Shown piece after piece: positions 11,682-47,997 of a DNA stretch of 54,825 bases. Position numbers and translations under genes: made by a program. Within the stretch, counting starts at the first letter, position 1. Every line of letters begins with the position of its first letter. The stretch lies in sequence record DRR723986_8527. One strand, 5' to 3'. Under the pieces are notes generated by a model. It worked only from the letters and a program-made list of their open reading frames with translations. It was not told where the DNA came from and made no database searches.

Positions 11682-14132
11682 TTATTTTTTAATAAATTTT
11701 CGTTTTATACTTTTTCCTTCAGACTCTAGCCTTAAGAAGTAAACACCACTCTGTAAATTGGAAACGTCTAAGCTATTTGTGTTTAGCTTTACATTAATAA
11801 TACGTTTTCCGTTTATATCAAAAACAGTCGCAATTTTGTTTGTAACATCGGCTGAAGTTATAATTTGCAATTGATCCTCAACAGGATTAGGATAGATAGA
11901 TACATCAGCTAGATTTTCATCTGTTATTGATAAAGTATCACCTTCAATTACAGTATGGGTTGTATTAATTGCAGGATTGTTAATTACATCAATTGTACCA
12001 GATGGCCAGTAAATTGTTATTGTTTGGATTGTAGTTTCTGACCCAATACCAAAATGCGTATTAAGCGAACTCATAAATTCAAAACCTTCACCACTTCTTA
12101 CATCTCTTATTTGAGTACCTGAGGCAGTTGTAATTTCGACGCGAGCACCAATACCATTTCTATTACTCATACCAGATGTCTGGTAACCCATCCCAATGGT
12201 GTTTATTTTAACCCAATTATTTGAGTTTCCTTGGTTATAATAGATTTTACCATTGTAGTACAAATCTATGAAACCATCATTGTTAAGATCTCCAAAAGAT
12301 CCATTTTTATAATTAATTTGACTTGTGTCAGGATCTTCAAAAGTTAAATCGCTTTTTCCATACATTATAGAACCGTTGCTTATTATGTCTAGATATCCAT
12401 CATTATCAATATCATAAGCAGAACTTTCCCATCCTGTAGGTGCTGAAATTCCTGAGCCAGCAGTTACATTGGTGAAATCAAAATTAGGCGCTCCATTATT
12501 TCTCATTAATTTATGACTACCTGAACTTGCTCCCACAAAAACATCCATATCTCCATCATTGTCAAAATCGCCCCAAGCAGAAGACCATGTTTGCATTGGA
12601 TCGGCTAAGTTTTTGCTTGCAGCATTTTCTGTAAACGTGCCATCACCATTATTTGTGATCATCATATTTGTTCTTCGTGCTTCAGACCCACCACATTTAG
12701 CGATAAATAAATCAATATTTCTATCATTATTATAATCTATCCAGATAGACCCATAATCACCACCAGACGGATAATTTCCGAGTGAATAAGGTGCGTCAGG
12801 TGTAACATCTGATTGATAGAAAGTTAAACTACCATTACCCTCGGAATCATTCATGAAATAGACATTTGGCTCAACATCATGACAAACAAAGGCGTCTAGA
12901 TTTCCATCGTTATTTATATCTACAAAATTAGAACGCTGTGAAAAGGTGTATTGCTCTGTAGTTGTTGATTGCTCAGTGAAAGCAGAGCCGTCACTATTTG
13001 ACATCATAAATGTTACTCCACTTCCAGCTCCGTATAGCAAATCAGTATATCCATCTGCATTGTAGTCGCCAGCAGCTAAACTCCAGGATGGTAAAAAGTT
13101 GGCTGCAGGTGTTGATATATTGCGATCTGTGAAACTTCCATTTGCGTTTTGCTGTTGAATATTTATGTTAGATGTAGACACTCCAACTATATCGTCTAAA
13201 AAATCTCCATTCATATCTACTACAGCCATATCGTACCCACTTACATCGATGTCAACTTGGCTAAACACTACACGAGAAGGAGGTGCCGTTGAAAAATTTA
13301 CTGGTCCTGCCCAAGTACTATAATCGCTGGCAGTACAACGAGCTCTTACAAATATTTCATAAGCAGTATCTACATTTAGTCCTGTAGCTGAATATGGAGC
13401 TGTATTAATGGTAAGTGTGCCGTTTGTTGGAACTCCCGTTCCTGCTGGTTGAATAGCTATTTCCCAAAGCGTTTCTGTTCCATTCGGAGTCCAAAACACA
13501 TTAGCAGTTGTAGTAGTTATATTATTTACAAATAAGTTTGATACTGTTGGACAAGTTGCCGCAGCACCAGATAATAATGTTGGTGAGTTAAAGCAAAAAC
13601 CCCAACCCCAAGAACCATTGTCTTGGTAGTATATTCTATATCTAAAATTAGATAATTGATTAGGAGAAAAGCCGGCAATATTTAATGTTCCACTGTTAAA
13701 TGAAGCACTGGGTCCTTCGCAAAAATTAACATTAGGCGCTCCAGGAGTATTATCGTTAATGGAGTTACTCCAGTTTACCCAACTATTTGAATCCGCATCC
13801 CAATATTGAATGGTAATAGTTTCATCCTCGTATGTATTAAGAACGTACTCTGAATTTAATTCTAAGCCGAATTCACCTGCGTTAAATGCAGCCGTTAAAT
13901 CTATAACAGGAGATTCTGCCGCAACGTCATTGTCAGAGGAAGAACCAGGCTCATCATCATCATAAGAAAAGTTACTCGATACCGTAGGGTTGTCTGTAAA
14001 TACATTAGGATTGGCGTCATACGTTCCGGTTATAGTCCAAGATGCATTTGGCCAGTTAGCAGGTTGGTTTAATACTTGTGCATAGCTAATAAAGCCAAAC
14101 ATTACCAGTATTAGAAAAGTAATTTTTTTCAT
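11682..14132 (-). CDS. T9SS-secreted FG-GAP/ASPIC-UnbV (CRTAC1-like) protein with an Fn3 domain
   Basis: Signal peptide; Fn3 (GLNVDTAYEIFVRA); many DxxxDG repeats; NRNGIGARV...HFGIG...WPSG; type A CTD (IYPNP...KFIKK). Confidence 0.85.
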   Translation of the reverse strand: MKKITFLILVMFGFISYAQVLNQPANWPNASWTITGTYDANPNVFTDNPTVSSNFSYDDDEPGSSSDNDVAAESPVIDLTAAFNAGEFGLELNSEYVLNTYEDETITIQYWDADSNSWVNWSNSINDNTPGAPNVNFCEGPSASFNSGTLNIAGFSPNQLSNFRYRIYYQDNGSWGWGFCFNSPTLLSGAAATCPTVSNLFVNNITTTTANVFWTPNGTETLWEIAIQPAGTGVPTNGTLTINTAPYSATGLNVDTAYEIFVRARCTASDYSTWAGPVNFSTAPPSRVVFSQVDIDVSGYDMAVVDMNGDFLDDIVGVSTSNINIQQQNANGSFTDRNISTPAANFLPSWSLAAGDYNADGYTDLLYGAGSGVTFMMSNSDGSAFTEQSTTTEQYTFSQRSNFVDINNDGNLDAFVCHDVEPNVYFMNDSEGNGSLTFYQSDVTPDAPYSLGNYPSGGDYGSIWIDYNNDRNIDLFIAKCGGSEARRTNMMITNNGDGTFTENAASKNLADPMQTWSSAWGDFDNDGDMDVFVGASSGSHKLMRNNGAPNFDFTNVTAGSGISAPTGWESSAYDIDNDGYLDIISNGSIMYGKSDLTFEDPDTSQINYKNGSFGDLNNDGFIDLYYNGKIYYNQGNSNNWVKINTIGMGYQTSGMSNRNGIGARVEITTASGTQIRDVRSGEGFEFMSSLNTHFGIGSETTIQTITIYWPSGTIDVINNPAINTTHTVIEGDTLSITDENLADVSIYPNPVEDQLQIITSADVTNKIATVFDINGKRIINVKLNTNSLDVSNLQSGVYFLRLESEGKSIKRKFIKK

Positions 14133-14143
14133 ATTAATTTATT

Positions 14144-15502
14144 TTAATCACAATTATTTAATGACTCAATCCATTCTTCAACTAGCCTAACTCCTTCTTG
14201 GTGCTTTAATGTTCTGCCAAACAGAGGCATTCTAAAAGATTCATCAGTTGTATTTATTCTGTAATAAAGAACAGATTGGTCTATATTATTAGGTTGTACT
14301 ATATCAGAATTTGGTATAAATTGTGTTTCTGGTTCTACACAAACCCCTAAATTTTCAGAATCAGCGCTGTCCTGGAATCCAAAACGCATTGATCTATATT
14401 CGCAATAACTATTTTCTGAGTGGCAGTGCGCACAGTTTATATCTAAGTAAGACCTCACACGCATTTCTAGAGACTCGCTGTTATCATCCCACTTAACCGT
14501 TGTTTGTATAGAAGCAGGTAAACTATTTTCTAAATAGCCTAATTCAACCAATTTGCTCAACTGATTTGAAATGCCTGTTGAATAATTATAATCTCTATTA
14601 AGGTTTTGTGGTTTTGGTCCAATTGGCACTGGTGTGTCAAATTTGTTATGACATGTGAAGCATTCTGCACGAGAAGGTATACGATAGTTAACCGTTTTGG
14701 TATCACCATCTTCAAGCCAACTTAAATTTACATTACTTCCGTCATTATCAAAATAGGCTTCGGTTTGTTCTTCATTCCAAACATACTTTGCAAAATCCCA
14801 TCCATCTTCTTTCTTGTACATTATGCGTGTTTCTAAGATTTTTGTTTCATTATTTGGTAAAACATTATCATAGAAAAAACTTTTAATGAGAACACTGCCA
14901 CTTGGAAAGTCTAAAGGGGAATAGTCATTTACATATGATGCTTTAACGCCATTTGGCATCCAAATAAATCGTTTTTTATGTGCGTAGTCTGTAAATAGTG
15001 GTGATATTAAGTCGTAAGGGATAACGCCAAAAGTCGGGTTTAAATCTTTTAAATTACCCTCAAAAAAATTATATGAAGACAGGGTTTCAAAAGGTGTATC
15101 TCCATTAAAAAAGTTCACTATAGATAGAGATGTAATTTCTACATTTACTGTTTCTGTTTTGCAATCAGCATTATTATCGCAAATAGTATATTGAAAAGAA
15201 TCTATACCAGTTTCATTGTTGTTTGCTGTAAAGACCAGAAAGTCATCTGAAATATCATCTGGTGTATTAGAATTGTTTATTGTTACAATACCTTTGTTTG
15301 GGTTGGTAACTGTAAACTGACCTTGAGAAGGAATATTTTCATCATTTAAAAACACAAATATATCTATCTCAGAATTTTGCGCAACGACAACATTATCTGG
15401 GTTTGTTCTAATACTTATAGGAGTAATAGTATCGTCACTTGAGCACGATATAATAATTAGTCCTAAAACCAGAAAAATAGATCTAAATATCTTTGTTTTC
15501 AT
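14144..15502 (-). CDS. Diheme c-type cytochrome lipoprotein (SO2930-like) with an N-terminal Ig-like domain
   Basis: Lipobox IISC-SSDD; DSFQYTICD Ig-like motif; PLFTDYAHKKRF; CFTCH, CAHCH and RMPL. Confidence 0.8.
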   Translation of the reverse strand: MKTKIFRSIFLVLGLIIISCSSDDTITPISIRTNPDNVVVAQNSEIDIFVFLNDENIPSQGQFTVTNPNKGIVTINNSNTPDDISDDFLVFTANNNETGIDSFQYTICDNNADCKTETVNVEITSLSIVNFFNGDTPFETLSSYNFFEGNLKDLNPTFGVIPYDLISPLFTDYAHKKRFIWMPNGVKASYVNDYSPLDFPSGSVLIKSFFYDNVLPNNETKILETRIMYKKEDGWDFAKYVWNEEQTEAYFDNDGSNVNLSWLEDGDTKTVNYRIPSRAECFTCHNKFDTPVPIGPKPQNLNRDYNYSTGISNQLSKLVELGYLENSLPASIQTTVKWDDNSESLEMRVRSYLDINCAHCHSENSYCEYRSMRFGFQDSADSENLGVCVEPETQFIPNSDIVQPNNIDQSVLYYRINTTDESFRMPLFGRTLKHQEGVRLVEEWIESLNNCD

Positions 15503-15551
15503 GAGAAAAAAAACACTTAGACTTTGCTTAGATTTGGAGAATTCGCAACGA

Positions 15552-15559
15552 CTAAGTTA
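15552..15559 (-). promoter_or_regulatory. Candidate -7 promoter for cytochrome/FG-GAP operon 1
   Basis: TAACTTAG, one mismatch to TAnnTTTG. Confidence 0.4.
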
Positions 15560-15647
15560 AAATAATTTAGTAAATCTAATAAAATGAATTGAAATAACAG
15601 CTTTTTTACTGATTATTAGCTGTATATAGCGATAAAATCAAAAAACT

Positions 15648-17717
15648 CTATTTCATGAAATTGTATTTCAATAGAATAAGTTTGTCTAAAACCTTATGTC
15701 TGGCATATTTGTTTAATTTGTAATACCAGTAAATAAGTCGCATTGGTAAAATAAAGTTGATGAATTTACTTTTTGTATAAATATAAGGTCTCAATTTGGC
15801 CATATATCTAAAATAGCGTTCAGGTTTTAGTAAAAACCCTATTGATTCTCTAACCAAACCTTTATTTTCTGGTAAGTCATACGATATACCAACTTTGTTG
15901 TCTCCTATATTTTGATAAAATCCTTTGTTTAAATTTTCTAAATAGTTGAGTTTTTTAGTTGATTGTAGCAAACCCACCTTTAGAGATAAATCAGTGATTT
16001 GTTTGTCAATCATTTCTTCGTTATAGCAGATGGTTTCAAGTTCAGTGAGTAGTTTTTGATGTTGGGCGAAGGAAAACTCTTGATGAGCTTTTATATAATT
16101 ATCATACAGCCACTTTTCATTTGGTTCATGATATTGTTTGGTGTAATTATCAGCATCCTTACTATAACCTAAAGCACTACCATGGTCTGCAGCCGCAAAT
16201 TGCTCATACAATTGTGTATTGGCCATAACTATTGAATCGGTATAACTTTCGAATGGTAGTAAGGAAAACAATATACCTTCACGAGGAGTGTTTTCAGTGA
16301 TATTATATATTTCTCGTAGCCCTAAATAAAAACCAGTAACCTTAACCTTGTCTTCATAGAACTTGTAAATAGACTCTTGCATTGTCCCTCCCCAGCCTAT
16401 ATCCACTAAAAAGATTCCATCTTTTATTACATCTACATTAAATGAATTTACATATTCATTAAATACATCTTTTTGTGATAATCGATGTGATTCATAATGC
16501 TTCAGAAACTCCTTATTGATTTTTAGCTCTTTAAAAATTTCAGAATTAAAAAAATCTTCTATTCTGTCCTCTTTCTTGGTGCTTATGGAATCTATAATCG
16601 TATTCATTTGAGCATCTGAAAACGAGAAAAATTTCAAGAATTCACTGACAGATAATGCGCTATGATAATGTTTTAAATAATCAAATGTTTCATCTGCAAT
16701 GGGCTTTAATGAAAACTGTATAGATGCCTGACGAGATATTCTTAAGTAATGCGTTTGTATTTTGTTTTGGTCATCTAATAATACATGATCTTGATAGGAG
16801 TCAAATAGCTTTTTTAAAAATTGGCCCTCTCTTGAAAGAAAGAATAGATCTTTAATATTCTTTTGCCTACTTATTTTATATAGTCTTTCGGTGAAAAAAT
16901 GATAAAAAATAATGTATTCACTAAATGGTTGTGCGTTTTTGCTGTTACATGTTTTATAGGTGTTATTTAATACAGACCTAAATTTTTTATAGTCATTACC
17001 AAAGTTATTTCTTTTGTTGCGCCTTAAATGACTTTTATGTGGCATTAAATAAGCATTTAAGCCACTTTCCTTGGCGCGACTTAAGTCACTTACTTCATTA
17101 TCTCCGATCATTAAGACATCCGAAGGATTTAAGTTTAAATCAGATAATATCTCTGGAAATATAGTGCCAGTATATTTACTTTTTTCCACAGAAGACGAAC
17201 TGTAGATTCCATCGAAGAGATCGCTAATATTATGATGCTTTAGAAGTGCTTTAAACATGGTTTTTGGCCCATAAAAATCTGAAACCAGATAAACTTTACC
17301 ACCTTTGGATTTGAATTTCTTTAAAACCGAGACTGTGTCTTCATTTATATATTGAACAGCAGATTCTGACTTAATATCTGCCAATTCAAAGCAGTTTAAA
17401 AAGTCATCTTTATTTTGACTTGAAATAACCTCTGCATTTAATAAACGCTTGCTTATTTCCTTTTTCAATAATTCGTAAGGCAGTTCTACATCTTCACAGT
17501 CGTGTTTATCCTTTAAGTATGCGACTGATTCTTGTCTTATAAAGTAGAGTGTATCAATATCAGTTTTGAGCCCAAGTTCAGTGATAAGTATTTTGGCCCA
17601 AAGTCTTAAAGTATAATTTGGGTGCACACTTCTATGTACTAAAGTATCATAATAATCTGTAAAAATTACCTTGATATTGTTAGCCTTAATAATGTTATTG
17701 AGTTGGTTAAGTTTCAA
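15648..17717 (-). CDS. Large HAD-family hydrolase-like protein
   Basis: DYYDTLV, VSD, MIGDN..SD, FLSREG, DIGWGGTMQ; TTG start is uncertain. Confidence 0.75.
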   Translation of the reverse strand: MKLNQLNNIIKANNIKVIFTDYYDTLVHRSVHPNYTLRLWAKILITELGLKTDIDTLYFIRQESVAYLKDKHDCEDVELPYELLKKEISKRLLNAEVISSQNKDDFLNCFELADIKSESAVQYINEDTVSVLKKFKSKGGKVYLVSDFYGPKTMFKALLKHHNISDLFDGIYSSSSVEKSKYTGTIFPEILSDLNLNPSDVLMIGDNEVSDLSRAKESGLNAYLMPHKSHLRRNKRNNFGNDYKKFRSVLNNTYKTCNSKNAQPFSEYIIFYHFFTERLYKISRQKNIKDLFFLSREGQFLKKLFDSYQDHVLLDDQNKIQTHYLRISRQASIQFSLKPIADETFDYLKHYHSALSVSEFLKFFSFSDAQMNTIIDSISTKKEDRIEDFFNSEIFKELKINKEFLKHYESHRLSQKDVFNEYVNSFNVDVIKDGIFLVDIGWGGTMQESIYKFYEDKVKVTGFYLGLREIYNITENTPREGILFSLLPFESYTDSIVMANTQLYEQFAAADHGSALGYSKDADNYTKQYHEPNEKWLYDNYIKAHQEFSFAQHQKLLTELETICYNEEMIDKQITDLSLKVGLLQSTKKLNYLENLNKGFYQNIGDNKVGISYDLPENKGLVRESIGFLLKPERYFRYMAKLRPYIYTKSKFINFILPMRLIYWYYKLNKYARHKVLDKLILLKYNFMK

Positions 17718-17730
17718 ATTATTAGTAGGC

Positions 17731-19896
17731 TTAGCCTTTTACTTTTTTATTAGTTTTGCTTGGCAAAACATCGAAACCCATATTATACAGGGTAAATCCA
17801 AAAATATCAGAATACTGTTCTAATATTTTTGACACAGGTGTTCCTGCTCCATGACCAGCATCAGTCTCTATACGAATTAATGTTGGGTTGCTACCCATCT
17901 GTTTATCCTGTAACTCAGCAGCAAATTTAAAACTATGTGCAGGTACTACTCTGTCATCGTGATCACCAGTAGTCACTAAAGTTGCAGGATACTCGACACC
18001 TTCTTTTATATTATGAACAGGTGAATAACCTTTTAAGTAGTTAAACATTTCTTTGCTATCTTCGGCTGTGCCATAGTCATAAGCCCAACCTGCACCTGCC
18101 GTAAAAGTATGATAACGCAACATATCTAGTACTCCAACAGCTGGTAAGGCAACCTTCATTAAATCTGGTCGTTGTGTCATTGTTGCGCCAACTAATAACC
18201 CACCATTAGAACCACCTCTGATTGCTAAATAGTTTGAAGATGTATAATTGTTGTCAATAAGATATTCTGCAGCTGCAATGAAATCATCAAAGACATTTTG
18301 CTTTTGCATTTTTGTACCAGCATCATGCCACTTTTTACCATATTCACCACCACCACGTAAATTTGGCACAGCATAAATACCTCCTTGCTCCATCCATACC
18401 GCATTAGCAATACTAAAGCTAGGTGTTAATGAAATATTAAAACCTCCGTAACCATATAATATTGTTGGGTTTTTACCATTCAATTCAAGACCTTTCTTAT
18501 GTGTAATAATCATTGGAACCCTGGTTCCATCTTTTGATGTATAAAAAACCTGATTACTCTCGTATTCTTCTGGGTTAAAATCGATGCTTGGCTTTCTATA
18601 TAATTCTGATATTCCATTTTTAATATCATATTTGTAGATACTACCAGGAGTTACATAATTGGTAAACGAAAAATAAAGTTCTTTATCTTCTTTTTTAGCT
18701 CCAAATCCATTCGCACTACCAACACCAGGTAATTCTACTTCTCTCACTAAATTACCGTTATAATCATATTGCATTACTTTAGAAACAGCATCAACCATAT
18801 AACTTGCAAAGAAATAGCCACCACCTCTTGAAGGTCTTAATACATTTTCTGTTTCTGGAATAAAATCCATCCAATTCTCTGGTGTTGGATTAGAAGCATC
18901 TACTGTTACAATTTTTTGATTAGGTGCTCCCAGATTTGTCATTATAAACAACTTACTACCTACATTTTCTATGATATTAGAATCCGAATTGGTATGCCCT
19001 AAAATCTCAACTAGAGGAGCATTAGGCATTGTAAGGTCTTTTATATATAACTTGTTTCCAGAGGTAGAAACTCTAGGAGTAATTATAAGATAACGATCAT
19101 CTTCCGTAACGTTACCATAAATATATCTGTGTTTTTCATCTGGTATACCGCCATAGATAAGTTCATCTTCAGACTGTTTGGTGCCTAGTTTGTGATAATA
19201 GACTTTGTGTTGATCTGTTTTTGCAGACAATTCGCTTCCCTTTGGCTTATCGTAACTGGAGTAATAAAAACCTTCATTTTTATACCACGACATACCGCTA
19301 AATTTAATATCAACCAAAGTGTCTTCTACGATCTCTTTAGTCATTGCATCCATGACTAGTATTTTTCTCCAATCACTACCACCTTCTGAAATGGAATACG
19401 CTGCTATTTTACCATTTTTAGAAAAACTCAGCCCTCCGAGAGAAATTGTACCGTCTTCTTTGAATGTATTTGGATCTAAAAATACCTCAGCTGTATCTGG
19501 ACTTTCTCCTGTTTTGTAACGGTAAATAACATATTGATTTTGTAATCCATCATTTTTAGAAAAATAAGTATAATCACCTTCTACATAGGGCGCTCCTATT
19601 TTTTCATAATTCCATAATTTAGATAATCGGTCTTTTAATTCTTCCCTATATGGAATATTATCTAGGTACCCGAAAGTTACCTCATTTTGAGACTTAACCC
19701 AAGCCTCGGTTTCTTCGCTTTTATCGTCTTCTAACCAACGATAAGGATCTTTCACTTCTTCATCAAAATAGGTGTCTACAGAATCGACCATTTTTGTTTC
19801 TGGGTAAGTTACTAGAATTGGTTCCACCTTAGTTTTTTCATTTTTACAAGCCATGAAAATACTCATTAACAATACAATAAGGATTGTTTTTTTCAT
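17731..19896 (-). CDS. Prolyl oligopeptidase (S9A), lipoprotein
   Basis: [14 protein letters not shown] (Ser), DDRV (Asp), AGHG (His); lipobox FMAC. Confidence 0.95.
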
Positions 19897-19933
19897 AATT
19901 AGTTTATTTTAATACGTAATTATAAAATTAAAG

Positions 19934-19963
19934 AAAAAAGCCCTTACCATTAGCAAGAGCTTT
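19934..19963 (-). terminator. Intrinsic terminator after FG-GAP gene 2
   Basis: AAAGCTCTTGC-TAATG-GTAAGGGCTTTTTT on the minus strand. Confidence 0.7.
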
Positions 19964-19982
19964 ATTTAAAATACTGGAAGTA

Positions 19983-22079
19983 TTATTTCTTAATGAATTT
20001 CTGTGTTTTTATTTGGCCTTCATTCATTATTCTGAGAATGTAGTTTCCATTTGCAATATTAGTAACATCAATTGTATTTTCAGAAAATTTACCATTTAGA
20101 ATACGCTTACCAGAAATATCAAAAACTGTATAAATAGCAGTCTCAAAACCATAACTAGCGTTAATGTTAATTATGCCTGTTGTTGGGTTTGGATAAATGA
20201 TTAGGTCGTCTACAAGTGTGTCGTTTAAACTTAAACTTTGACCTTCTTGCACAACAATTGTTGAGTTTATTGTTGGGTTATTAATATTATCTACAACACC
20301 AGATGGCCAATAAATTCTTATATAGTTTATAGTTGTATCTGTACCAATACCAAAATGTGTATTCATTGTGTGCATATATCTAAATCCTTCACCGCTTCGG
20401 ACGTCTCTAATCTGAACACCAGATGGAGTACTGATCTCAACTCTTGCACCAATACCATTTCTGTTACTTCTATTTGATGCAGTATGAGCCATTCCTTCAG
20501 TTACAATTTTTATCCAATTGTTGGCATTTCCACTATTTATATAAATATTATTACTGCCAAACATGTCTAAATAACCATCGTTATTTAAATCTCCAATTGA
20601 CCCACCATAAGCAGAGTTAGGTAATGATAAATTAGGATTGTAAGTAAAAGTTAAGTCTCCATTACCAAATAACATATTACCATTTGTGAAGATGTCTAAA
20701 TTACCGTCGTTATCAAAATCAGCTGCAACATTTTCATATCCTTTAGCGGCAGAATCTACACCAGCCCCTGCTGTTACATTAGTAAATGTACCATCACCAT
20801 TATTTCTCATCAAGGTATTAGGATCATCAAAGTCACTAGATCCCACATAGGCATCCATATCACCATCATTATCAAAATCTCCCCATGCAGCAGACCAAGT
20901 TTGAATAGGATCTGCCATATTTGCCGCCGCAGCAACCTCCGTATAGGTGCCGTCACCATTATTTCTATAAAGCTCATTGGTTCTTCTTTCGATGGACCCA
21001 CCACATTTAGCCATAAACATATCAATATCTCTGTCATTATCATAGTCTATCCAAATAGAAGCGTAGTTTCCACCGTTTGGATATCCTCCCAATCCATTGG
21101 TATTACTAGACACTAAAGCATAATTATTAGAAGGACCTTGATTTAAATACGTTAAACTTTCATCTACATCGTGACAAACAAAGGCATCTAAATTTCCATC
21201 ATTGTCTACATCAACAAAATTTGAGCGCTGAGAAAACACATATTCGTTGATCGAAAATTCATTATAAGCAGTACCATTAGAATTAGCAATCATAAAGCTA
21301 ACACCATTTCCGTCGCCATATAGTAAGTCGTTATAACCATCAGCGTTAATGTCTCCTGCAGCAATACTCCAAAAAGGAGAATAAGTTGGTTCACTAGTTG
21401 CAATTGTGACATCATTAAAACCACCGCCTGGTAATTGATAATGTATATTAATAAAAGAGTTAGTACCATCATTAACACTTACAACATCGTCTAAATGGTC
21501 GCCATTCATATCTACAATGGCTTGATCATAAGAACCTGCGGCATTTATAGTTTGCTGAGTGAAAGTAACTGGTGTTGGTGGTGGTGGTGGAGTTGGGTCG
21601 TCTTCAGTTAAGATAAAATCAAAATTACTACTGTTAGTCCATTTGTCATCCCAAACAATATAATAGGTTTCACCTACTTCAACCTCAAATACAGCAACAG
21701 ACAAGTAAGAATTACCATTACTACCGCCAAATACACCACCATCATCATTACCACCTACACATGTAAATATGCCTGTACCACAATCTCCTTTAAATACTTG
21801 TACTCTTGTGTCTTTATCACCGTTTTGACTTAAATCAGAGCTGACTGTAACTTCGTAATCTTCGTCTGGGATATATTTTACCCATTCGCCTCCATCTACA
21901 TTACTACCTGTACCTTCACAAAATATTGGCGGCATGTCACCGTCAATAGTGCCAATAGTATAAACAGTATCTGGTGATATACTAGAACTTGCATTGGTCG
22001 CGGCACAAGTATCGTAAGTTTGTGCCTCTAAACATAGGAGCGACATAAAACTAAATGTGAATAGTAATATTTTTTTCAT
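19983..22079 (-). CDS. T9SS-secreted FG-GAP/ASPIC-UnbV (CRTAC1-like) protein, paralog of 11682-14132
   Basis: Signal peptide; Cys-containing N-domain; Pro-rich linker; DxxxDG repeats; ASPIC/UnbV motif; type A CTD. Confidence 0.85.
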   Translation of the reverse strand: MKKILLFTFSFMSLLCLEAQTYDTCAATNASSSISPDTVYTIGTIDGDMPPIFCEGTGSNVDGGEWVKYIPDEDYEVTVSSDLSQNGDKDTRVQVFKGDCGTGIFTCVGGNDDGGVFGGSNGNSYLSVAVFEVEVGETYYIVWDDKWTNSSNFDFILTEDDPTPPPPPTPVTFTQQTINAAGSYDQAIVDMNGDHLDDVVSVNDGTNSFINIHYQLPGGGFNDVTIATSEPTYSPFWSIAAGDINADGYNDLLYGDGNGVSFMIANSNGTAYNEFSINEYVFSQRSNFVDVDNDGNLDAFVCHDVDESLTYLNQGPSNNYALVSSNTNGLGGYPNGGNYASIWIDYDNDRDIDMFMAKCGGSIERRTNELYRNNGDGTYTEVAAAANMADPIQTWSAAWGDFDNDGDMDAYVGSSDFDDPNTLMRNNGDGTFTNVTAGAGVDSAAKGYENVAADFDNDGNLDIFTNGNMLFGNGDLTFTYNPNLSLPNSAYGGSIGDLNNDGYLDMFGSNNIYINSGNANNWIKIVTEGMAHTASNRSNRNGIGARVEISTPSGVQIRDVRSGEGFRYMHTMNTHFGIGTDTTINYIRIYWPSGVVDNINNPTINSTIVVQEGQSLSLNDTLVDDLIIYPNPTTGIININASYGFETAIYTVFDISGKRILNGKFSENTIDVTNIANGNYILRIMNEGQIKTQKFIKK

Positions 22080-22092
22080 AATAGCTTATTTT

Positions 22093-23178
22093 TTAATCAC
22101 AATTGGTTAAGGAATTTATCCATGCATCGATGAGTTCAATTCCTTCTTGATGTTGTATTGTTCTTGCCAAAAGTGGCATTCTTGTTGATTGTTCTACGGA
22201 TTTAAGTCTAAAGGATAATATAGATCTTTCAGAGTTTCCTGGGTCAATAATTTTTGTTAGTGCAGGATCAAAAACATCATCAGCATCCACACAAACACCT
22301 GTATTTACTATATCTACTGTTTCATTAAATGCGAATCTTACCGGTCTATAATCACAATGTCTGTTATCTGCATGACAATGAGCACAGTTAATATCTAGGT
22401 AAGATCGGGCTCTTAATTCTAAGGATTCGCTTTCGTCTTTATAATCTACTACAGTTTCTATATCATCTGGGATATTATCAGACAGATACCCAAACTCAAT
22501 CCATTTTTGTAATTGATTTTTAGTTTCATTGGCGTACTCAATAGCTTTGTTGAGACTATTTGGTTTAACACCAATTGGCATCGGATCTGCATCATCAGTT
22601 TTATGACAAGTTAAACATTGTGAAGCAGCAGGGATTTGATAATTTACACTTTTAGCTTCTCCATTAGCAATAAAATTAATGGATTGATAACTACCACTTA
22701 GATCAAAAGTTGCCTCAGTCTGTTCCTCATTCCACACATAATTAGCAAAAACCCAACCGCTTTCTTTTTTTATCTGAAGTCTGGTTTCTATAATTTTTGT
22801 TGAATTATCAGGAAGTATATTATCGTAATAAAAATTTTTGATTAAGACAGTTCCTAGAGGAAAATCAAGAATGTCATGGTCAGAAACATAATTGGCAATT
22901 ACACCATCTGGCATCCAAACAAAACGTTTTTTCTTTGCGTATTCCGAGAATAGAGGAGTAATCATGTCATAAGGCAATACTCCGTATACAGGATTTAAGC
23001 CTTTCATGTCTCCATTGAAAAAGTTATATTCAGAAAGTGTCTGGTAAGGTACAGCCTCTAGATCAAATATAACAGGCGATACTTGAGGCGTATCATCAAC
23101 ATCAGTATACCCATCATCACTAGAACATGATAAGACTAGGGCAAATAAAAATACTATATAGAAACAATTTTTTAACAC
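22093..23178 (-). CDS. Diheme c-type cytochrome lipoprotein (SO2930-like), paralog of 14144-15502
   Basis: GTG start; lipobox VLSC-SSDD; PLFSEYAKKKRF; CLTCH, CAHCH and RMPL. Confidence 0.8.
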   Translation of the reverse strand: MLKNCFYIVFLFALVLSCSSDDGYTDVDDTPQVSPVIFDLEAVPYQTLSEYNFFNGDMKGLNPVYGVLPYDMITPLFSEYAKKKRFVWMPDGVIANYVSDHDILDFPLGTVLIKNFYYDNILPDNSTKIIETRLQIKKESGWVFANYVWNEEQTEATFDLSGSYQSINFIANGEAKSVNYQIPAASQCLTCHKTDDADPMPIGVKPNSLNKAIEYANETKNQLQKWIEFGYLSDNIPDDIETVVDYKDESESLELRARSYLDINCAHCHADNRHCDYRPVRFAFNETVDIVNTGVCVDADDVFDPALTKIIDPGNSERSILSFRLKSVEQSTRMPLLARTIQHQEGIELIDAWINSLTNCD

Positions 23179-23196
23179 TTATAGTAAGTTGGGACT

Positions 23197-23204
23197 ACAA
23201 TATA
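23197..23204 (-). promoter_or_regulatory. Candidate -7 promoter for cytochrome/FG-GAP operon 2
   Basis: TATATTGT, a variant of TAnnTTTG. Confidence 0.35.
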
Positions 23205-23294
23205 GCTACAAGTGTTTGAAAGAGTTTAATTAATTAGTTGAACTACATAATTTTACTGTTATGGTGACAAGATTTCGATAAAGTGTATCTAGCA

Positions 23295-47569: not shown

Positions 47570-47598
47570 ATGGATTAAAACAAACAATTTATAAAATG

Positions 47599-47671
47599 AA
47601 AAAGGATGAACAGACGTTCATCCTTTTTGCCCCAAATCTACCATAAACTTAACCTACTTATGTTATGGTGA
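47599..47671 (-). ncRNA. Candidate small RNA, copy 1
   Basis: Upstream TATATTTG (47674-47681); 43-nt core shared with copy 2; terminator GGATGAAC-GTCT-GTTCATCC-TTTTT. Confidence 0.65.
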
Positions 47672-47711
47672 CTCAAATATAAGTGCACAGATATTTAATA
47701 TTTTAATTTTT

Positions 47712-47831: not shown

Positions 47832-47905
47832 AAAAAAAGGTGAACTAAGTTCACCTTTTTTTGCCCCAAATCTACCATGAACTTAACCTACTTATGTTAT
47901 GGTGA
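47832..47905 (-). ncRNA. Candidate small RNA, copy 2
   Basis: Upstream TACATTGG (47908-47915); core 42/43 identical to copy 1; terminator GGTGAAC-TTA-GTTCACC-TTTTTTT. Confidence 0.65.
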
Positions 47906-47945
47906 TACCAATGTATATTTAATTTGTTAAAGCGAGGGTAAATAA

Positions 47946-47997
47946 TAGACGAAATGCATTTTTATTAGACAAAACGCTTATTTTTTCGGATAAAATG
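47946..47997. promoter_or_regulatory. Three direct-repeat boxes upstream of sRNA copy 2
   Basis: TAGACGAAATG (47946), TAGACAAAACG (47966), CGGATAAAATG (47987). Confidence 0.5.

Follow-up and report, generated by a model that had tools for sequence, protein, structure and literature searches.

The data presented here show that a tandem gene pair encodes a predicted trans-acting, base-pairing sRNA of ~72 nt, which we refer to as family A. The genes lie in a stretch of 54,825 nt (the window) that also contains two dihaem cytochrome operons. In the best overall explanation we can offer, which we advance tentatively, A pairs with the leader of operon 2 and blocks initiation, a second RNA, B, antagonises A, and operon 1 is either a second target or a chance match. 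In the original prediction, trans-acting sRNAs with a GGGG seed regulated both cytochrome modules; the sRNA itself proved genuine and conserved and has an exposed G-rich pairing module, while regulation of both modules is unlikely.

The 20-nt sRNA core GUUUAUGGUAGAUUUGGGGC was located at 47648-47629(-), with a second copy carrying one mismatch at 47882-47863(-). Copy 1 (47595..47669, minus strand; 77.6 bits with model R1; fold z = -4.6) is predicted to begin at the A of ACCAUAAC (47669) and continues through hairpin 1 and the exposed AGAUUUGGGGC (47639-47629) to an intrinsic terminator. Copy 2 (47832..47903, minus strand; 78.4 bits with R1) has its own terminator and differs from copy 1 by GUUCAUGG in place of GUUUAUGG. 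The family folds into two stem-loops, with AGUAGGUUAAG as the loop of hairpin 1 on the 5' side, the opening energy of the RNA is lowest at AGAUUUGGGGC, and the stretch AGAUUUGGGGCAAA is the only part of A, copy 1 included, that is cheap to open. Upstream of copy 1, the TAnnTTTG rule identifies the -7 box TATATTTG (47674..47681, minus strand), and the -7 box-like TACATTGG precedes copy 2 (47908..47915, minus strand); according to PMC9723704, this type of box spans -12 to -5 relative to the start. Across the family, a -7-like box is present in 170 of 179 copies and lies 4 nt before ACCA in 121 of them. Farther upstream, TGCATTTCGTCTA (47946..47958, minus strand) comes closer than any other site of the window to the conserved promoter motif of the family, TGCATTTCATCTAAAA, with 1 mismatch, and the k-mer GCATTTC is enriched 36-fold upstream of the sRNA promoters (n=175). 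Each A gene thus has the layout of an independent transcription unit with a sigma-A type -7 box and an intrinsic terminator, the promoter being predicted from its motif. In metatranscriptome data, short contigs lie over both sRNA cores at depths of 49.9, 13.6 and 12 compared to ~3 for the flanks; several of those covering the cores continue into unlike sequence and, therefore, derive from relatives. Such contigs cannot demonstrate transcription, and we regard them as a weak hint only.

Using model R1, family A was identified in 123 of 151 sampled Flavobacteriaceae genomes with one to six matches each, and at least 120 genome stretches, almost all from Flavobacteriaceae, contain the exact 16-mer of A. 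The 40-nt body of A is near-invariant across 58 distinct full-length copies and AGAUUUGGGGC is unchanged in 57 of them, and the terminators, hairpins followed by a U-run, vary through compensatory changes. A sod gene adjoins the A genes at 88 of 120 loci. At a syntenic locus 3' of an ABC ATPase gene, three to four degenerate A-like motifs are present without terminators. An Rfam 15 scan of the window returned a tRNA only and no family for sRNA A, the best sub-threshold matches to A reaching 22-26 bits with gathering thresholds of 56-57; nor did Rfam contain a match for sRNA B or the multi-motif A-like locus.

The partner RNA, B, supports a pairing function for A. In B, a covarying hairpin presents CCCCAAAU in its loop, which complements the seed of A, and the 5' end carries CUUAACCUACU, which complements the loop of A. 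Because B is complementary to both seed and loop, the seed of A is a pairing module. In helix 1 of B, both sides vary at all nine pairs, and 96.7% of cells in the structure are paired, a value equalled by none of 500 shuffles. B was found in 38 of the 151 genomes, all 38 of which contain A, and its gene stands alone, divergent from an operon for an ECF sigma factor and anti-sigma factor. With a C-rich site in its hairpin loop, like that of the operon 2 leader, B would probably titrate A. sRNA sponges, or anti-sRNAs, include RosA for RoxS/FsrA and SroC for GcvB. Similarly to these, B is complementary to the pairing elements of a regulator; by contrast, B uses two sites, with its 5' tail facing the A loop and its own loop facing the A single strand, and is encoded by a stand-alone gene next to a sigma factor operon.

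In each cytochrome module, a dihaem cytochrome lipoprotein is encoded together with an FG-GAP/ASPIC-UnbV protein carrying a T9SS C-terminal sorting domain, all on the minus strand. Module 1 comprises P0001 (14144..15502), with an N-terminal Big_9 domain, and its partner (11682..14132); module 2 comprises P0002 (22093..23178), with a GTG start, and its partner (19983..22079). An in-frame TAA stop lies directly upstream of the GTG at 23178. Both cytochromes have two CxxCH motifs (CFTCH and CAHCH in P0001, CLTCH and CAHCH in P0002) and align with the whole of profile TIGR03806 (SO2930-family dihaem cytochrome) at 294.8 and 293.3 bits, respectively, slightly short of the 313.3 cutoff.

The operon 2 leader site GUCCCAACUUACUAUAAGU at 23195-23177(-) overlaps the GU of the GTG start, as had been proposed, and pairs with the 20-nt core at 18 positions, extending into the GUG start. 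The pair count, the one mismatch and the one bulge agree with the original description, but the pairs divide into 13 Watson-Crick and 5 G-U rather than 14 and 4. The site is preceded by the -7 box TATATTGT of the TAnnTTGY type (23197..23204, minus strand), at which orthologues have TATATTAG, and, at about -35, by the near-palindrome CAACTAATTAATT (23228..23240, minus strand), which is conserved in orthologous promoters and is probably a regulator site there. The earlier caveat that the transcription start may clip the CCC was justified: the predicted start, 23192, falls within it, and with this start G23195, U23194 and C23193 would perhaps not be transcribed. Without GUC, the operon 2 duplex of the window drops to -11.0, which is matched by 80 of 1070 background leaders.

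Promoter and leader of the operon 2 type are conserved among 20 orthologues, with Gaetbulibacter, Psychroserpens, Mangrovimonas and Hanstruepera among the genera that have the leader. Pairing with A at -14.8 kcal/mol or better is seen for 20 of the 22 leaders of this kind, in six sequence variants, and A is carried by all 20 genomes with leaders of this type. By comparison, this leader is absent at all five homologue loci of genomes lacking A, and in 22 orthologue groups tested, equally complementary leaders were found in none other. When the core was compared to positions -21..+3, the operon 2 leader of the window was equalled by 1 of 1070 background leaders, the G091 leader by none and the consensus leader by 3 or 18, depending on the variant; of 5000 mono-shuffles of the consensus leader, 0.04% reached its energy. 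Shared phylogeny ties the 22 leaders together, so that in evolutionary terms they amount to roughly a single observation. Substitutions in the leader are uninformative, as wobble pairing survives most transitions. Based on these comparisons, we suggest that the operon 2 leader can pair with A in a manner retained by related genera. That A actually regulates operon 2 is plausible, but we hold this view with less than even confidence.

Mechanistically, we infer that the exposed G-rich stretch of A would nucleate pairing at C-rich sites and that the duplex with the operon 2 cytochrome mRNA would then propagate into hairpin 1 along its 3' arm. It would thereby cover the entire ~14-17-nt 5' UTR together with the start codon; in a host without Shine-Dalgarno recognition, covering the leader in this way should block translation initiation. 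This pairing comes at a cost. As cautioned originally, half of the proposed duplex lies in hairpin 1 of the sRNA, which has to be opened at ~5.8 kcal/mol. The resulting net energies, -6.1 to -10.2, do not improve on the -10.4 and -10.0 reached by unrelated genes in the window. Sixty orthologues without the conserved leader are at background level (median -9.9 vs -9.8).

For operon 1, the site CUCCAAAUCUA at 15539-15529(-) was recovered 27-37 nt 5' of the ATG at 15502, and it forms, exactly as described originally, 11 contiguous pairs (10 Watson-Crick, 1 G-U) with UAGAUUUGGGG. It is the top non-self match over both strands of the window, has a low opening cost (1.2 kcal/mol) and is one wobble apart from the core of the B loop. 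With the 12-nt seed, 3 of the 1070 background leaders from related genomes do as well. A candidate -7 box, TAGATTTA (15571..15578, minus strand), is retained as TTAGATTTA by 13 of the 16 orthologous upstream regions in the alignment, and the box-to-start rule would put the start at ~15566 and the site within a 5' UTR of ~64 nt. TAGATTT and GTAGG upstream of Winogradskyella orthologues were considered as sRNA-like elements, but TAGATTTA is more simply a -7 box. The site is retained in the sister species, where the entire leader is ~90% identical, and is missing from the other aligned Winogradskyella orthologues. Also, the 12-nt seed pairs at -10 or better in 4 of 80 orthologues compared to 18 of 276 controls, and the site (-37..-27) falls outside the usual ribosome footprint. 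A dual-site model in which leader 1 engages both loop and seed was rejected, since 6 of 1200 background leaders do equally well and the loop site alone, at the 8th percentile, adds little. The seed-only match of operon 1 may mark a second target specific to this lineage, or may have arisen by chance. Thus, of the claim that A regulates both modules, what holds is a conserved operon 2-type leader complementary to an invariant core; the operon 1 pairing is not conserved, and we consider regulation of both operons by A unlikely.

The foremost rival, to which we give the same weight as to regulation of operon 2, is that the sRNA is real and neither leader is its target. Here, the complementarity reflects chance and the shared ancestry of paralogous leaders, both of which inherited a UCC(C)AAAU box. 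Conservation of the operon 2 leader would then have DNA-level or translational causes: it overlaps the -7 box and the start, may serve as an operator for the regulator binding CAACTAATTAATT, and has to supply an unstructured, A/U-rich region for initiation. In line with this, the conserved box straddles the predicted start, the two leaders, aligned by eye, agree at 8 of 14 positions and are, therefore, not independent, and conservation is lacking at the site in leader 1. Among 46 leaders of the window, leaders 2 and 1 rank first and second with the 20-nt core, which argues against this rival; with the 12-nt seed, leader 1 is first and leader 2 third. By the accessibility-aware score, leader 1 is first and leader 2 sixth, and neither is an outlier, in favour of the rival. 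Also in its favour, shuffled seeds yield tails similar to those of the real seed among the 1070 related-genome leaders, so that leaders as a class are not enriched, and ~0.3% of leaders, or ~8-10 genes per genome, would match equally well by chance. A perfect 5-1-5 palindrome, TTTACTGTAAA, would hint at a DNA operator in some operon 2-type leaders; however, just 4 of the 22 have it unbroken, and pairing is retained in 20 of them. Moreover, the conserved stretch, from the start to the AUG, is matched over its whole length by the invariant sRNA core, and the lineage of the window altered four to five positions with pairing kept or improved, while random drift keeps pairing in 8-11% of simulations. 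In a separate search, a transcription-factor motif common to the sRNA and cytochrome promoters was discarded, as there were 49 matches in the window with 46.6 expected and none convincing near the leaders.

We give little credence to a second rival, in which the chief role of the invariant 40-nt body of A is that of a protein-binding or sequestering RNA, or of a decoy for such an RNA, complementarity to mRNAs is incidental, and the multi-copy genes and the several-motif locus serve titration. It would account for near-invariance of the whole body across genera, beyond the seed, for one to six copies in tandem, and for the terminator-less, ABC ATPase-linked locus with its degenerate motifs; also, Bacteroidota are not known to have Hfq or ProQ, so that other RNA-binding proteins are expected. 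Nevertheless, B complements precisely the two exposed elements of A and has covarying stems, which points to RNA-RNA pairing, and no candidate protein was identified in the present analysis.

The broadest version of the original prediction, in which A controls both cytochrome modules within a wide regulon of CCCAA leaders, is improbable: both leaders are top-ranked in the window, P0001 has a Big_9 domain, and perfect anti-seed sites in relatives are found close to genes whose products are secreted or have Big_9 domains or T9SS tails, but such a regulon was not found, as leaders show no more strong hits than with shuffled seeds and leader 1 has no conserved site. The four- to fivefold excess of CCCCAAATC over its reversed control does not signal a regulon and is mostly explained by coding-strand GATTTGGGG, to which it is antisense (matches antisense to ORFs: 12 of 22 in G001 and 27 of 40 in G002, G004 and G005 combined). 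Likewise, the sister genome shows no excess of CCCAAATCT (24 matches vs 24 for the control), and in five genomes TCCAAATTTTNC is not enriched as a regulon-wide leader box, the promoter being present only at cytochrome genes.

Multi-copy trans-acting sRNAs with an invariant seed are known from Vibrio (Qrr1-5) and Pseudomonas (PrrF1/PrrF2), and the targets of PrrF and RyhB-type RNAs include haem and iron proteins, with genes linked to superoxide dismutase biology. As in Qrr and PrrF, A has multiple near-identical genes with their own promoters and terminators and an invariant single-stranded pairing stretch, and its position beside sod at 88/120 loci parallels the superoxide dismutase link of PrrF and RyhB. 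However, A has no sequence or Rfam relationship to Qrr and PrrF, and in the motif analysis of the A promoters no Fur-like box was recognised, the conserved motif there being TGCATTTCATCTAAAA. The host phylum, unlike the hosts of Qrr and PrrF, is not known to have Hfq or Shine-Dalgarno-based initiation (cf. PMC7797042). Closer to home, A resembles GibS, MasB and the FopS family (RF04319) of Bacteroides thetaiotaomicron in being a Bacteroidota sRNA with a Rho-independent terminator and proposed pairing at a translation initiation region, and, like FopS, it is a family of paralogous copies. A is not a FopS member, as it scores 22.2 bits with a gathering threshold of 56 (E = 0.5) and mainly the terminator is covered. 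According to PMC9723704, Rfp18 of Flavobacterium psychrophilum has predicted pairing with secreted protease and adhesin mRNAs, and protease control is described. Similarly to Rfp sRNAs as presented there, A is flavobacterial and conserved beyond the species; by the same account it is set apart from Rfp18, which pairs via a third stem-loop while A has two, and the Rfp11 promoter is ECF-type while A has sigma-A type boxes (PMC9723704). A may be identical with Rfp13, Rfp15 or another Rfp sRNA. A guide RNA of the dCas12f/sigma-E system, as outlined in PMC13472631, is not a suitable description of A, since its "guide" would not vary and genes of that kind were not observed.

sRNA A is an unannotated RNA carried by about four fifths of the sampled Flavobacteriaceae genomes, in a phylum in which post-transcriptional control is almost unexplored outside Bacteroides. 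If its pairing with the cytochrome leader is real, a core sRNA would be linked to extracytoplasmic haem proteins of unknown function, and it would illustrate how translation can be blocked on very short leaders without Shine-Dalgarno sequences. More speculatively, and with considerably less confidence than for operon 2 itself, we envisage a two-RNA circuit in Flavobacteriaceae in which the sod-linked, multi-copy A and the ECF-linked, C-rich antagonist B set the translation of dihaem cytochrome/T9SS FG-GAP modules. If true, an ultra-short leader, wholly occluded, would be held near-invariant across genera by an invariant sRNA, and a sponge-controlled, Hfq-independent mechanism would operate in a phylum without Shine-Dalgarno initiation. 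The work yields a directly testable trio in cultivable marine flavobacteria: sRNA A, its partner B and a candidate target leader conserved across genera.

The complementarity between the sRNA core and the leaders of the two cytochrome operons was confirmed, and a script verified the sequences and positions of the core and both leader sites. The 20-nt core of A, the sRNA family encoded by two tandem genes, is at 47648-47629(-), and a copy with one mismatch is at 47882-47863(-). In the operon 1 leader, CUCCAAAUCUA (15539-15529(-)), 27-37 nt 5' of the ATG at 15502, can pair with UAGAUUUGGGG over 11 contiguous positions (10 Watson-Crick and one G-U). The operon 2 site (23195-23177(-)) extends to the GU of the GTG at 23178 and forms 18 pairs with the core, with one mismatch and one bulge as predicted, and with 13 Watson-Crick and five G-U pairs rather than 14 and four. 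Both operons encode cytochromes, as proposed: each protein has two CxxCH motifs and a full-length match to the SO2930-family dihaem cytochrome model (294.8 and 293.3 bits, slightly below the cutoff of 313.3). The 3' neighbour of each cytochrome gene is an FG-GAP/ASPIC-UnbV gene with a T9SS sorting domain. In the window, about 24-40 kb separate the sRNA genes from the operon 2-type cytochrome gene (47.6 kb vs 23.2 kb); they share one numbered contig in the genomes G251 and G253 and, as inferred from matching coordinates, one contig in G249, G250 and G252.

A is a genuine, widely conserved sRNA family. At least 120 genome stretches, nearly all from Flavobacteriaceae, contain the 16-mer ATGGTAGATTTGGGGC, with 1-5 tandem copies per stretch, and of 151 genomes sampled from a relative's family, 123 matched a profile made from 62 copies (1-6 matches per genome). 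A TAnnTTTG-like box is present 5' of 170 of 179 copies, and 121 of these boxes end 4 nt before ACCA. In Flavobacterium psychrophilum, the TAnnTTTG box is described at -12 to -5 (PMC9723704, section 15) and, therefore, the predicted start of A is the A of ACCAUAAC. The predicted fold consists of a 5' hairpin with the loop AGUAGGUUAAG, a free AGAUUUGGGGCAAA stretch and a terminator (z = -4.6 and -4.95), and the opening energy is low only at the free stretch. The 40-nt body hardly varies among 58 distinct full-length copies, and the terminators differ by compensatory changes. The A genes are flanked by a purF-like and a sod gene: of 120 loci, 88 have sod, 94 the purF-like gene and 78 both. No Rfam family matches A, and we found no description of it in the literature; the Rfp sRNAs were compared by their descriptions in PMC9723704, and Rfp18 as described there differs from A because it pairs through its third stem-loop. 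Separately, the purF-like leader in five Flavobacterium loci (L010, L075, L096, L097, L118) has a conserved UGCCUCGAAUUUU with 11 seed pairs (-12.8 to -13.1 kcal/mol), while the window purF-like leader (5' of 49910) lacks UGCCUCGAAUUUU and reaches only -6.3 kcal/mol with the seed.

While examining anti-seed sites in relatives, we encountered a second small gene, B, with its own -7 box and terminator (L359:1473-1552 in the sister species G091; also L364, L308, L366-L373, L379 and L384-L413). B has a single-stranded 5' CUUAACCUACU, complementary to the loop of A, and a hairpin with the loop (U)CCCCAAAU, in which CCCCAAAU is complementary to the free stretch of A, i.e. the seed. Across 37 matches, all 9 pairs of helix 1 vary on both sides and, over the whole structure, 96.7% of cells are paired, a value equalled by none of 500 shuffles; both A-complementary elements remain conserved. 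B is present in 38 of the 151 genomes, all 38 of which carry A, and has no Rfam family. At the nine loci inspected, an ECF-type sigma gene is divergent from B in all nine and an ABC exporter gene convergent in eight. Because the conserved elements of B complement the loop and free stretch of A, and its stems covary, these data support that the predicted GGGG seed would function in RNA-RNA pairing.

Other elements in relatives resemble or complement A. Some B members have an additional CCCAAAU in the terminator loop. In three Winogradskyella genomes, GCCCCAAAUCUUAAAUCUUAACC, with both anti-A motifs, lies in a 3' UTR between the stop codon and terminator of a gene whose 456-aa product has a T9SS sorting domain (L217:~1495-1560 oriented, L311, L352). 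A syntenic, intergenic multi-motif locus 3' of an ABC ATPase gene (L211:~1440-1560 in G001; L354 and L363 in G091; L305, L327, L032, L040, L090) has 3-4 A-like motifs that are degenerate (GUAGGUU..GGUAGAUUUG) and lack terminators, with a conserved ATCGATAAAATGCA element after them. At or just past the start codons of genes for signal-peptide proteins or lipoproteins (L222/L309, L302, L347, L348, L351, L353), there are several perfect anti-seed matches of 9-10 nt, which often encode Pro-Asn-Leu or Thr-Pro-Asn and are candidate targets. The conserved motif TGCATTTCATCTAAAA occurs, often twice, 5' of the sRNA promoters (about -75..-37 in L001-L120; window 47946-47958(-)) and is probably a regulator site; its reverse complement, ATCGATRAAATGCA, is also near the multi-motif locus, B and two anti-seed leaders.

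The data do not support a wider CCCAA-leader regulon. In five genomes, CCCCAAATC outnumbers its reversed control 4-5-fold, but 12 of 22 matches in one genome, and 27 of 40 in three others, lie antisense to ORFs, and CCCAAATCT shows no enrichment in the sister genome (24 matches vs 24 for the control). The conserved non-coding matches are B, the 3' UTR site, the multi-motif locus and a small number of leaders of secreted Big_9 or cadherin-like proteins. Among the 46 leaders within the window, leaders 1 and 2 ranked first (-14.4 kcal/mol) and third (-9.9) with the 12-nt seed, second (-15.5) and first (-17.2) with the 20-nt core, and first (-11.0) and sixth (-7.9) when accessibility was included, with unrelated window genes at -10.4 and -10.0. 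In a set of 1070 leaders of related genomes, the real seed gave 3 that reach -14.4 and 86 that reach -10, inside the ranges of twelve shuffled seeds (0-7 and 35-165). Thus, leaders as a class are not enriched.

For operon 1, the site is missing from the other aligned Winogradskyella orthologues, and seed matches at -10 kcal/mol or better are not in excess (4 of 80 orthologues vs 18 of 276 controls); the identity of the sister species' leader 1 is uninformative. We regard the site as an unconserved seed match and a doubtful target. Upstream regions of the same cytochrome type in Winogradskyella (L151, L156, L174, L178, L181, L184 and others) have TTAGATTTA, about 21 nt, and GTAGGnGTTTTT, with a hairpin and U-run immediately 3' of a putative -7 box, which could be an attenuator or the upstream gene's terminator. 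A long A/U hairpin, CUAAGUGUUUUUUUU..AAAACAAAGAUAUUUAG (window 15483-15520(-)), is predicted to hold the operon 1 start codon in its loop, and in read-through transcripts the sRNA site is predicted to be able to pair instead with upstream UUAGAUUU.

For operon 2, among 80 homologous loci, 20, the closest orthologues of the operon 2 protein, share a conserved promoter and leader with the layout CAACTAATTAATT, about 22 unconserved bases, TATATTAG, then GTCCAAATTTTACT(G/A)TAAATG; the window and G091, which share 82-88% nucleotide identity with each other, have a diverged form. A conserved near-palindrome, CAACTAATTAATTG, lies around -35 in promoters of this type across genera (window 23228-23240(-); L121-L198), followed by an unconserved 22-nt spacer. 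Pairing of the consensus leader with the invariant core spans the leader from its first bases through the AUG, at -15.5 to -16.5 kcal/mol, an energy equalled by 3 or 18 of 1070 background short leaders, depending on the variant, and reached in only 0.04% of 5000 mono-shuffles. Twenty of 22 leaders of this type, in six sequence variants, reach -14.8 or better; 61 leaders without the conserved box match background (median -9.9 vs -9.8). With the core over -21..+3, window leader 2 is equalled by one of 1070 leaders and that of the sister species by none. A is present in all 20 genomes with the box; among 20 A-negative genomes, four have homologues (five loci), none with the box. In a comparison of 22 orthologue groups from the same neighbourhoods, only the cytochromes had equally complementary leaders; the box is specific to the operon 2-type gene and not a regulon element.

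Two caveats of the original prediction hold. By the -7 box rule, the operon 2 start is predicted at 23192, so that GUC is lost and the window duplex reaches only -11.0 kcal/mol, equalled by 80 of 1070 background leaders; in the orthologues and G091, the predicted start keeps CC(C)AA and the energies are maintained (-16.0; net -8.7 to -9.6). Moreover, the long duplex must open hairpin 1, the 5' hairpin of A, at about 5.8 kcal/mol. Because the 22 leaders share ancestry, they amount to little more than one evolutionary observation, and substitutions among them favour neither hypothesis. Leader 2 could possibly be conserved for a DNA-level reason, but only 4 of the 22 leaders have the perfect palindrome TTTACTGTAAA.

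The metatranscriptome contigs give at most a weak, indirect hint of expression. That A regulates both operons, as proposed, is improbable. There is good support for A and its pairing seed, and the comparative data make it a reasonable, if tentative, hypothesis that A may repress the operon 2 cytochrome by occluding its short leader.
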